A DNA stretch of 63,636 nt, filler included, from Sluysia triapertura (GCA_046118255.1; 5 parts of 5 records of this genome joined end to end with filler, not necessarily neighbours in it); one strand, 5' to 3'; positions 1,470-52,530 are shown, counted from the first letter of the whole stretch. Notes: generated from the letters alone by a model not told the origin. Numbers and translations are program-made.

Positions 1470-2010
1470 TGAGTGGATGTCAATTGATAAATATTTGTGG
1501 TTGAACAGTATTCATTTTCTCCATTTCTTAGTTTTTTTTGCATCAACAACTTTCCTTATTATTAATTCAATATTTGTCTTAGTAGCATTTTTGATCGTAA
1601 AACTTAGATTGAAATTAATCGAGCTAGCATCATTTTGGGCAATTGATGCAATGACAATATTTAAAACGTTTACTTCTGCTTCAACCTACATAACAACTCG
1701 ACAATCGACATCCAACGAGTTGCATTCACACATAACCAAGAATTACAATGTTATAGTAATCCACTTGATTGTCACCATAAAAGTATTATTTCAATCGATT
1801 ATTTTAGGAGTAGCACTGTTCTATTCTATTAATAAATTATTGACAGCACAAAAAAACTTTTTCGAATTATTACGAATTGCTTGGTCAATTTTACAATACA
1901 GCTTCTTGGTGTAATATCTAAATGTCATCTGGTGAAGATATTTTTTACAATGAAGCTAGTTTTATTATTTAATTCTTTTATGCTAGTTCTTCACTTATGG
2001 TTAAAAGGAT
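1470..2010 (-). pseudogene. Degenerate C-terminal fragment of the unidentified repeated family (copy G)
   Basis: Minus-strand FRYYTKKLYCKIDQAIRNNSKKFFCAVNNLLIE*N..NNTF and VEAEVNV align by eye with HRYYMSDAMYLNISNQIKERFYRSTLKLIEEN..NTF and VEVDVRV of ORF 33852..35558. Confidence 0.5.
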
Positions 2011-2176
2011 AAATTCATATTAATAAACAAATATCCAATGAAATGTGAATTTGGTATTGAGGTAACCAATTAACATTTGATTAGATTACAAGACAAAATT
2101 ACAAGGACAGCCGTCTTGGCTTTTTGGTTAATTATTTAGGTAGTCATATTGGCTTTTTAATTTAGAAACTGATATA

Positions 2177-3660
2177 AAGTAAACTCCCGATTATTCGGGC
2201 TAATGATAAAAAACAATGAAAATACATTCAATGCTTTATTAAAATCGGTAATTTCTCAATGACTTTAACATCATCTCGAATTTTTCTTAAAGTTATTACA
2301 TCGTTATAGTCGAAGCTCCATTTATTCTAGTAAAGTATCGACAGAAGTCAGTGCCGTGTCGTGACTAATGCGGCTGGTAATACCTTCTACCTCACTTTCT
2401 GTCTCACTTTCATTTGGATTTGAAATTAGATTTGAAATCATATCCGTGTCACTCTGGTATCCGTAATCCTAGATAAGATGAATCAAATTTCATCAATTTC
2501 TCAATATTTTAGTCATCAACATTTTCAAAGCCATTTAAATTTCTCATTAGTTCACATAATTCTGAAATCGTACGTGTCTCAGGTAGGATAAAGTCCGAAA
2601 CATTACTCAATACATTTGACAAAAATTTCAACTAGTGTTATTGGCTTAATTTTGCTCCAAGATTTAACAGCTCCATATATTGCATTCAACATTGTCATTT
2701 TTTCAATAAATTCATTATCGCTGCAAAAGCTTTTAAGGAGATAATTGCGATAATGGCGTTTCAACCTTGATCCATAGGTTGAATTAAAGATGTTACATTA
2801 GGTAGTAAAAATTTCGCAGCTATAAGGCCGTCGTCCGTTTTCAGTGTGCTTTCGTTTGGATGACAAGGAGTAGTATTTAATAGCAGTACTGCCTTTTGTT
2901 GCAATCCTTTACTTTTTAAAAAAACTCGAATTTCTGAGACCAATTTATTTTTAAACCAGTGTTCATCCATGCTCCTTTTGATTGTAGTAGCCAACAGGAT
3001 GATTCTTTATTTCTGTTCCTTTAAATGATCTTGGCTTTTTTTCATTTTATGAGTTCTGGATGCATTGCTACAGCACATGATTGTGATACGTTCTTTAGAT
3101 GATTTAAGGCCTGGAGTCGATGATTCATTAGACGAAACAAGAGTCTTTGTAGGCAAACTCTTCCAATATAAGCCTGACTCATGGGCATTATATATTTGGT
3201 CGGATTTCAAATCATTTACTTGAACATATTCCACAAATTCAATCCGGAATTTAGTAGCAACGTCAACATCTCCGCTAAGGCGTTCTCCTTGGATTGGAAA
3301 CTCACGGATACCATGACGTTTCTTAAATCTGGTTAGCCATCCAGAAGATGCGTTAAAGTCTTTTTTTCCCTTTTCACTCATTTCAATTAACTTAACTTTT
3401 TGTTTCACAGTCAGTACGACTCTTTTGACAGTACAATTATTTGACATTGCGATAGGGTATTTTTCTAAAATAATCTAAAAATTAAAAAAATTCAAATTTT
3501 AATTATCATCAGGTATTTTAAACCTAAAAAATAAATACGTACCGGTAAATCAATAGCAAATCAATAAAATTAAAATTGTACTTCCTAAAATAAATAGATG
3601 CGTACTTATTTAAACAATTGTGCATTTTCTAATTATCTACGGATAATCGGAAGTTTTCTT
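2177..3660 (-). mobile_element. Tigger/pogo-family (jerky/CENP-B-like DDE_1) DNA transposon, defective
   Basis: TIRs aagtaaactcccgattattcg (2177-2197) and cggataatcggaagttttctt (3640-3660) match at 18/21. Transposase motifs KRVVLTVKQK, ASSGWLTRFKKRHG, IYNAHESGLYWK, SKERITIMCCSNA and LPNVTSLIQPMDQG lie in ORFs 3007..3447 and 2761..2994. Catalytic Asp positions are altered. Confidence 0.92.
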
Positions 3661-50370: not shown

Positions 50371-51557
50371 TTACAAAATTATAATTGAGATTGAGAAAAT
50401 TACTAAAAATGATAGAAAGTTAAATTTTTTTGCCAAATTAACTAGTGTTGAATCAAAATAATAATACTAAATATATGCTAAATAATGAAATGCATAGCAC
50501 TATTTATAATGCTATTCTGTTTGTGACCTTAAAGATTATTTAAATAATGATTCATTTTTATAAGTACATTTAGTAATTATTAATTTTTAAGATTAAGGTC
50601 TCGTGACATTTAAAGTGTTTATTATTATATTTATTATTATGCAGATTAATATTATTTTTAATATTGTAATTGTATTTTATTTACATTATTATTGTGTTTA
50701 GTATAAAATTATTACTAAATTTTAACCATGACACGTATAAGCATTACACATTAAATAATCAGTATACTTTTCAATAATCAATCAATAAATCACTATATTC
50801 GGTATATAAATGTATTATAATATTTCTAAAATTTTTTATTACTGTGTACTAAAAATTAATTGTAAATACATGTAACTTTGTTGTATGTAGTATTTTCACT
50901 TTTTAATAGCAAAAATGTTTTTAAATTTTATATTTTCATCTTTTCTACTGTTTAAGACCTCGCTTTAATTAATTTCAATTATTACTGAAGTTTTCTATGA
51001 ACTTTAATGCAAGATGATACTTAAATAGTTTGGCGGTTGTAATCCACAACTTATTATACCTTGATAATATAAAACAAATATTTATAGATTAAACTCATTC
51101 ATATATCATTATCTTGATCTAGCTACACAACTAGATGGTAAATCTATTATGATGAGCTTTATTTAATAATTTCTTTTCAATTTTTATTACCATAACAAAC
51201 AGTAAAGAAAAACCTAATAGAAGACCCACCGATCAAAATTACATAACCTTTCTAAATTATAATTCACTGGCCAAATACTCCCTTTTGAACCTAAATAAAA
51301 CCATAAATATTTTATGAAATTCCCTGCGTCTATATTAATATGAGTCTTCACTAAATAAACAAAAAAGAACTAAACTGATAAGAATAACAATAGCGTTTAT
51401 AATAGTATCAAGGATATTACAATCTAATTAATACCAAAGAATCAAGAGTGATACAACAGATACTAACAATATCAATATCAAGAAAATTAATAGTAATTAT
51501 GTTATTTAAATATTTTTGGTCAACGTAACAAAGAGTGATTATGATTACAATAAAATT

Positions 51558-51657
51558 NNNNNNNNNNNNNNNNNNNNNNNNNNNNNNNNNNNNNNNNNNN
51601 NTTAATTAATTAANNNNNNNNNNNNNNNNNNNNNNNNNNNNNNNNNNNNNNNNNNNN
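51558..51657. other. Assembly join (artificial linker)
   Basis: N44-TTAATTAATTAA-N44. Confidence 0.97.
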
Positions 51658-52530
51658 ATCATTTTCTATCGGTGAATTTTATAAATTATAAGTAAGCTTA
51701 TTCATAATAAGTTTTGGAATAAATCCGTTGCCTTAAAATACTTCTCAAAATCTATTAAATTTACAACCCAAGAATTAATTCTGGGTCAAACTCAGCATTA
51801 AAATTCCATTGAAATTATTTATTTATTGTAATTGGTATTTCTTTTCTTTATTATTTTTATATTGAATTGGATTTCATGTATTTATTTGTTAATAAACGTT
51901 TTTGACTTAAAAAGTTTTTTGTATAAAGAAAGATTGTAGTATAAAATTGCAACGATAAATGACTAAACTTAAATTGGAGAATTCACTAGAGTCGAGTTAG
52001 AGAATATAAAAACCATATTACATAGAAAGGATTAATAAGTTATTGTAACAAGCATAGGTAATCCCCATTAATAGCGTGTAAAGAATAGTTTCACATTTCT
52101 TTCTAATAGATATGATTAGAAATTAGTGAAAGTTATTGAACCTCATTTTCGTTAGACTATTACGTTGATTAAAACCTGTGAACACGTCCTTCTAAGATAA
52201 ACCGTGTTACACAGGTGGACCCATTTTTAAAGTAAATTTTTCATAATTGTTTTAAGCTAGAAAGTTTTGAATTGATTGGATGATGAGAAAGTGTAAAATA
52301 AATATTTCAAAATTTATACAACACATTAACAAGATTACAACAATAACAAAGATGATACAATGGTATTATGGTACAATGGTATGAAGATCCGTGCGTAGGG
52401 TAAAGTTTCTAATTTTTAATTTATTATTTCATTAAAATAATATAAATTATTGATTTTATTTTAAATTGAATAATTTTAATATTGTATCATTTTTAGTCAA
52501 TTTTTAAGTTGTTTTTAAGGTGAGTTGGTA

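Follow-up and report, generated by a model that had tools for sequence, protein, structure and literature searches.

Mobile elements of animals may carry interiors unrelated to transposition, and multicopy cargo borne by terminal inverted repeats (TIRs) has been described, the multicopy Pack-TIR cases amounting to 3–5 copies (PMC8277862). Retroelements with extra unrelated open reading frames (ORFs) include bdelloid long terminal repeat (LTR) elements and Terminons (PMC5408684, PMC6431247), and the SSSGP genes of the Hessian fly, a gall midge, combine a conserved leader with a divergent coding part (PMC2955719). The present analysis concerns a 63,636-nt stretch of Sluysia triapertura DNA (GCA_046118255.1), the whole of which is termed the window. 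A sequence-only reading had proposed that eight diverged, intronless copies of one gene family (A to H) were spread through it. What survives of that proposal is an orphan multi-copy gene, D, together with up to three related units, A, C and E; most of the claimed eight-member family is, as judged from shuffled-sequence controls, chance resemblance.

The ORF of copy D (Table 1) could be distinguished clearly from chance, as the longest frame in 30 shuffles was 189 codons compared to 573 in ORF D, and the chance of a frame as open as this one was 2.6e-21. Residues 1–345 show coding-like base periodicity, and one hydrophobic segment is present at residues 347–365. Copy number was assessed for D and F only, using summed contig depth in the public run X1, a value which, as the tool cautions, is not itself a copy number. 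Depth over ORF D was 825–4418 against 13.6 at a lipase exon in the same window, corresponding to a 61- to 325-fold excess, or 7- to 40-fold with a baseline of 110. Runs X2–X4 mirrored the profile of X1 at a few thousandths of the X1 depth and add no independent support. The contig pieces available in aligned form, 32 listed of about 13,800, constitute a small and selected sample. Among them, none of the 12 listed ORF D pieces contained a gap, even though 8 of the 12 differ by 10–19%, compared to 8 of the 14 listed pieces differing by more than 5% outside ORF D. The skips listed inside ORF D, of 36 and 144 nt, were both in frame, a third joint nets 36 nt, and three of six listed substitutions were silent. 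The gap-free divergent pieces and the in-frame skips thus indicate, within this small and selected sample, that the D family kept its frame. ORF D is therefore a real protein-coding frame, as the sequence-only reading had held, and we infer that the repeat containing it is dispersed.

A search of 5.8 billion clusters of comparable length gave no homolog for ORF D, its residues 1–345 had no relative among 1.84 billion representatives, and the viral, metagenome, prokaryote and phage collections, Pfam and PHROGs yielded no relative either. A CCCH finger is absent from D. Two pattern-selected matches were attributed to chance, one (L001) with 52% identity across a 29-residue part of a bacterial-type ORF and the other (L002) with a best segment of 15 residues, its sole listed ORF lying on the opposite strand. 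For residues 1–350, the Atlas returned immunoglobulin-like phage tail clusters at no more than 0.84, which are leads only. The single-sequence fold models, with predicted local distance difference test (pLDDT) values of 32 and 42, were unusable; the best Foldseek E values were 0.065 and 0.016 (none below 0.001), and the best Z of the VIA fold comparison, 5.8, was obtained using low-pLDDT models. The helix and strands around LVLIFD may form the beginning of an RNase H fold; the lack of an RNase H-like match among these results is no argument either way.

The copy profile of unit D is high at the 32637–33100 end, the leader, and lower over the ORF. Leader depth reached 93,000–560,000 against 13.6 at the lipase exon and was put at 850–41,000 times single-copy depth; the GC skew is -0.54 to -0.89. 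One contig's match to unit D starts at 32634, and 25 contigs diverge from the window sequence at 33100, beside a candidate ATG. The decayed stretch between leader and ORF may be a broken 5' part of gene D. Directly after the stop of D, a repeat copy at 35584–35642 occurs at about 9,000 times single-copy depth. A very abundant short repeat at 36257–36477 (summed depth 367,000) may be a separate miniature inverted-repeat transposable element or the far end of unit D.

A start motif resembling that of D could be observed at the beginning of three further units. The DNA of C and E, a match absent from the sequence-only reading, is 77% identical over 151 nt (E 2e-21), a stretch that takes in an ATG some 140 nt downstream of the start; the likeness is undetectable beyond about 230 nt, and the frames are unrelated by alignment. 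Units A (9078, minus strand) and D (32637, plus strand) have a common 25-bp start, which ties for the best single match among 350 segments. The D–A match chain, which includes the KDLCV bases chosen by the sequence-only reading, ranked 1 of 702 segments and was reached by 0 of 200 local shuffles. A profile built on C, D and E recovers A at E 4.5e-5. All four starts have the same orientation, each lies ahead of a C/A-rich block, and TG begins A and D. By these comparisons, sharing of the start motif appears firm for C and E and weaker for A and D. Further, the distance between start motif and frame end is about 2 kb in both A and E, and one 12-base word located past the frame, noticed afterwards, occurs only in these two. 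Downstream of their candidate ATGs, D and E have hydrophobic stretches; no clean signal peptide was recognised in the frames, which are broken at the 5' end. The decayed frame of unit A (8098–7112) retains 329 codons with six internal stops, and no homologs of it were found when the stops were read as X; most copies in the window are dead. A perfect 12-bp inverted repeat (hairpin) lies in unit A at 8310–8365 (minus strand). Separate C/A-rich blocks occur upstream of ORF F198 (39400–39672, minus strand) and of B (13000–13250, minus strand), in the same arrangement as in A, C, D and E; no start motif was found in them, the former being cut by a contig end.

Unit E contains a single CCCH finger (C-x9-C-x6-C-x3-H with a YKT lead-in, about 49550–49640), which matched Pfam zf-CCCH_UNK at E 8.9e-5, below the cut-off, and tristetraprolin at E 0.0012; its CCCH leads in the Atlas all scored below 0.9. 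A CCCH-like finger of the same spacing is present in unit A (7459–7379), with the last His changed to Arg. The A–E alignment was reached by 0 of 300 shuffles with the finger and by 143 of 300 with the finger masked, which bears out the CCCH finger common to A and E. The orphan ORF 59606 resembles the middle of E with a score of 75 (0 of 150 shuffles window-wide), the reciprocal score being 55 (3 of 200 shuffles).

The window also contains a deleted Tc1-type transposon (Table 1), and its end finds its three best non-self matches at the starts of A, C and D; a TA precedes the start motif in E only. Besides the finger, Pfam matched nothing in the D, A, C or E frames, including any DDE transposase. 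Among the 218 fragments covered by the Pfam scan, no reverse transcriptase (RT), protease, integrase or viral hallmark gene was detected. Searches also gave no tRNA, no hammerhead (Rfam, 0 matches at E 0.1), no two long direct repeats of LTR type and no gag homology, although a divergent gag can escape such searches. The stretches at 15430–15990 and 56400–56900 (both minus strand), in which Pfam found no DDE match, are by their motifs what we take to be decayed Tc1/mariner-like transposase remnants.

The reading that we tentatively prefer, at somewhat less than an even chance, is that D, A, C and E are related non-autonomous DNA transposons with a Tc1-like end that carry fast-evolving orphan ORFs instead of a transposase. 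A Tc1-type transposase of the host would move these units in trans, and the abundant family would consist of short derivatives keeping the end. The leader would serve as promoter and 5' untranslated region (UTR), coding parts would diverge or be swapped faster than the leader, and the A/E protein is predicted to bind RNA via its single finger. Several results weigh against this reading. Left-out profile recovery was weak (D at E 3.9 from A, C and E; C at 0.025; E at 0.078), A was picked for the seed owing to its resemblance to D, the D protein matches no other unit, and the likeness of C and E ends early, as given above. The TTA run accounts for the long A–D DNA alignment (control run 593 vs 587), and the part after that run was at chance (32 of 300 shuffles). 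The Tc1-end likeness had been noticed before testing, and its scores of 22.4, 19.4 and 19.3 were judged to be at shuffle level against best scores of 17.0–21.4 in 12 shuffled windows. For none of A, C, D and E did a search among short contigs and decayed copies turn up a partner end or a second long repeat, so no target duplication is readable. The best partner-end candidate for unit A, at 2983 (2 of 100 shuffles), lies inside the Tigger ORF.

The same leader pattern could arise in a lineage-specific host multigene family evolving by birth and death, with a conserved promoter or 5' UTR and a fast-changing coding part; the abundant repeat upstream of D would then be a separate insertion or a promoter derivative. 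C and E, alike in the leader up to and including the ATG but divergent beyond it in the pattern described for SSSGP genes (PMC2955719), favour such a family, as do the kept frame of the D copies, the hydrophobic stretches after the candidate ATGs of D and E, and the failure to find a transposase, RT or paired ends. The depth of the D leader, however, fits a transposon better than a promoter, three of the four units are heavily broken and no clean signal peptide was recognised; the host family is considered unlikely, though with an appreciable chance. Retroelements of LTR, Penelope-like or tyrosine-recombinase type that lost the catalytic ORF would leave gag-like or accessory ORFs behind, the abundant leader being a solo long repeat. 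The TG start of A and D, the end-high copy profile, the C/A-rich sense strand and the capture of extra unrelated ORFs by known retroelements (PMC5408684, PMC6431247) agree with this origin, but a second repeat, an RT, protease or integrase in the scanned fragments, and a hammerhead or tRNA are all wanting, and in C and E no more than about 140 nt separate the start from the ATG; this origin is distinctly unlikely.

If genes of a large DNA virus, or of some other virus, had been endogenised and then amplified, they would be expected to be intronless, AT-rich and orphan as observed here, and the second- and third-ranked Atlas entries for the E finger were Nucleocytoviricota clusters (0.85 and 0.84; leads only). 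No viral relative of D, A, E, F198 or ORF 59606 was found in the searches made, E, F198 and ORF 59606 had no match in viral contigs, the exact leader motif was absent from viral contigs, and the representatives contained none for D1–345. A leader at thousands of copies is moreover unlike a virus, and the scans gave no hallmark gene. A viral origin, which the sequence-only reading had also offered, drew no support from the viral, phage or representative searches and is held to be very improbable. Little more than the pairs may be real, with D and F198 as unrelated repeats, C and E as one small repeat, A and E joined by a CCCH finger of generic kind, and the start motif as chance or a common promoter word. 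D is indeed tied to the others by short motifs alone, any two equally spaced CCCH fingers would score, and the E–59606 match is one-sided; but A and E share start, finger and the 12-base word, and four motifs all stand ahead of a C-rich block in the same orientation, which leaves such a piecemeal account with little chance. About as improbable as these last two, in our estimate, is an undescribed class of animal mobile element in which a Tc1-like end and a common leader drive interchangeable orphan genes, D being still selected and serving element spread with a fold not yet assigned, and another an RNA-binding CCCH protein possibly countering host silencing. No description of such an element appeared in searches of the open literature.

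The larger family fared worse. All 16 motif strings searched (16 of 16) exist in the six-frame translation, as the sequence-only reading had reported. Partner motifs were scored against the D motif in 50 shuffled windows (12 rows, the B row left out): nine were equalled in 50 of 50, LVIFDH of F in 78%, and KDLCV in A, equalled in 6%, was the sole rare partner motif. Exact 5-mers common to D and the rest of the window numbered 128, compared to 130–168 in 8 shuffles, so that a single exact 5-mer match is to be expected. In frameshift-aware alignment, D1–350 against A, B, F, E and H was equalled by 77, 86, 82, 74 and 100 of 100 shuffles, respectively, and G against D was reached by 15–88 of 300 shuffles under four scorings. 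For D, alignments thus score no better than composition-matched shuffles against any of A, B, E, F, G and H, and the six ordered motifs do not unite eight copies in one protein family. When 16 queries were aligned against the whole window, A–E and E–59606 alone were at or above the top of both controls. In the table of pairs, cells other than C–E and E–59606 that exceeded 30 shuffles did so narrowly, F frame 0 against B by most (74 vs 59). Within-window TBLASTN linked A to E and no other pair. The equal 438-nt motif spacing in A and D, picked afterwards, was rejected (diagonal, 73 of 2000 shuffles; semi-global, 410 of 1000). Matches of D351–573 to F (beating 97 of 100 shuffles) and to 1400–2000 on the plus strand (beating 100 of 100), each seen with one matrix only, and of Dup to the Tyr-rich run at 19200–19700 were judged compositional. 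Membership does not extend to B, G, H or the downstream half of F. Several intronless coding-like remnants without known homolog are indeed present in the window, and a mobile-element cargo or fast-evolving family remains in play, D being multi-copy.

The single copy F proved to be a composite of a multi-copy ORF, F198, and single-copy DNA with a class 3 lipase exon on the plus strand. F198 is a real long frame by the same control of 30 shuffles (longest 189 codons), shows no linkage to D, A or E by alignment, and has a weak PHROG match (phrog_27657, E 7e-4). The region 38246–39100 is multi-copy, and 37136–38337 is single-copy, with contigs showing 0 differences at depth 11–14. Most of the copy F motifs lie in this single-copy DNA opposite the lipase gene, and motif 2 of F overlaps the end of the lipase exon on the opposite strand. 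More short GT-AG-bounded stretches surround the exon (36400–39300, plus strand), the multi-copy F198 unit seems to interrupt the lipase gene, and a lipase paralog, about 85%, is visible in run X1.

Six contigs compose the window, with five joints (Table 1), and the linkers part A/B/G, C/D/F, E/H and ORF 59606 onto separate pieces. As four of these joints are artificial linkers, no array of the copies is demonstrated, the notion of copies spread through the window lacks a physical basis, and the pieces are not shown as neighbours. The GC content is 24.6%, (TTA)n runs are plentiful, and the window contains ordinary eukaryotic debris, namely GAPDH, pogo/Tigger, Pif1, the deleted Tc1 and the class 3 lipase exon. 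The host has the look of an animal with short introns. The GAPDH remnant (1051–1500, plus strand) has one stop and about 64 residues missing in frame, and its named matches, 69–80% identical, come from mites, a spider, a pseudoscorpion, a wasp, molluscs, a sea anemone and bacteria, a mixture that did not place the host. A broken pogo/Tigger-type transposase (HTH_Tnp_Tc5 and DDE_1 in Pfam) lies at 2761–3474 on the minus strand, and a Pif1 helicase 2B piece of probable Helitron origin at 63165–63602 on the plus strand. One dispersed repeat family occurs at 24325–24817, 26728–27153, 53342–53503 and 35584–35642. A 182-nt inverted match (78%) between 51369–51550 and 52825–53000, on two contigs across a linker, likely represents two copies of one repeat. 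Coding-like orphan remnants elsewhere comprise 59081–59672 (plus strand), with a weak Sec7 match in Pfam on 59081–59347 (E 3.5e-5), and 18292–18678 (minus strand). Self-BLAST palindromic stretches at 30554–30667 and 41215–41393 may be short foldback elements.

Table 1. Positions of the units, frames, reported motifs and joints in the window
Feature	Position (nt)	Strand	Basis
Unit D leader: start motif followed by a C/A-rich block common to a very abundant repeat family	32637–33100	+	
Unit D decayed stretch: KDLCV 15-mer 33246–33260, degenerate (TTA)n 33266–33435	33101–33836	+	
ORF D: 573 codons stop to stop (568 from first ATG), orphan, multi-copy	33837–35558	+	
Unit A: start motif (9078) and C/A-rich leader, then KDLCV 15-mer, TTA run and decayed frame	7112–9078	-	
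Unit C: start motif with leader; ATG some 140 nt inside, decayed frame after it	28480–29627	-	
Unit E: start motif and C-rich leader, then broken frames with a single finger	47781–49787	+	
ORF 59606: 194-codon orphan frame, weak likeness to middle of E	59606–60190	+	
ORF F198: multi-copy orphan	38305–38901	-	Depth 1112–1880 (X1)
Class 3 lipase exon, GHSLG motif	38000–38125	+	Pfam Lipase_3 E 1.6e-8, above cut-off; PDB
Deleted Tc1-type transposon: 27-bp inverted ends, TA either side	14269–14830	-	DDE_3 E 2.8e-4
A motifs	8679, 8095, 7657	-	Six-frame translation
B motif	12424	-	Six-frame translation
D motifs	33247–34698	+	Six-frame translation
E motifs	48719, 49084	+	Six-frame translation
F motifs	38631–36528	-	Six-frame translation
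G motif	1919	-	Six-frame translation
H motif	50294	-	Six-frame translation
Artificial contig linkers: 44 N + TTAATTAATTAA + 44 N	16735–16834, 27933–28032, 39673–39772, 51558–51657	none	
130 N gap	56237–56366		Fifth joint

Orphan ORFs in unclassified repeats are commonplace where genomes are poorly sampled, which limits surprise until ends and function are known. If D is transposon-borne, tens to hundreds of copies have kept a long orphan protein intact, which suggests a function for the element over passive capture, and the D family is large enough for an alignment of its own toward fold prediction; if D is a host family, it represents a large lineage-specific expansion. The case also demonstrates that AT-rich DNA and linker-joined contigs can yield convincing but false motif families.

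Compared to known systems, the E finger resembles the CCCH fingers of tristetraprolin, Unkempt and Roquin in its YKT-x-LC lead-in and C-C-C-H ligands; unlike these, it is a single x9-x6-x3 finger, below the Pfam cut-off, in a broken unrecognised frame, and is absent from D. Over their first 11–25 bases, A, C and D look like the inverted end of the Tc1 (DDE_3) transposon at 14269–14830, whereas no unit contains DDE_3 or a helix-turn-helix domain and the likeness is at shuffle level per match. Bdelloid LTR elements and Terminons likewise carry unrelated accessory ORFs (PMC5408684, PMC6431247), but no RT, paired repeats or hammerhead were found here. A conserved leader with an unalignable coding part, seen between C and E only, recalls the SSSGP genes, which are small, secreted, intron-bearing, tandem and expressed (PMC2955719), whereas the present units are known from DNA alone. 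Pack-TIRs and Pack-MULEs differ in that one end only, no target duplication and no parental host gene were found here, and in that a long frame stays open across subfamilies 10–19% apart in tens to hundreds of copies by depth, compared to 3–5 copies in the multicopy cases described (PMC8277862). As the two-end test failed and no parent is known, the units are not filed as Pack-TIRs. They nevertheless have in common with Pack-TIRs and Pack-MULEs a non-transposase interior behind a transposon-like end, multiple copies in the case of D, and ends that often decay on one side (PMC8277862), and by analogy the system appears to work most like the multicopy Pack-TIRs.

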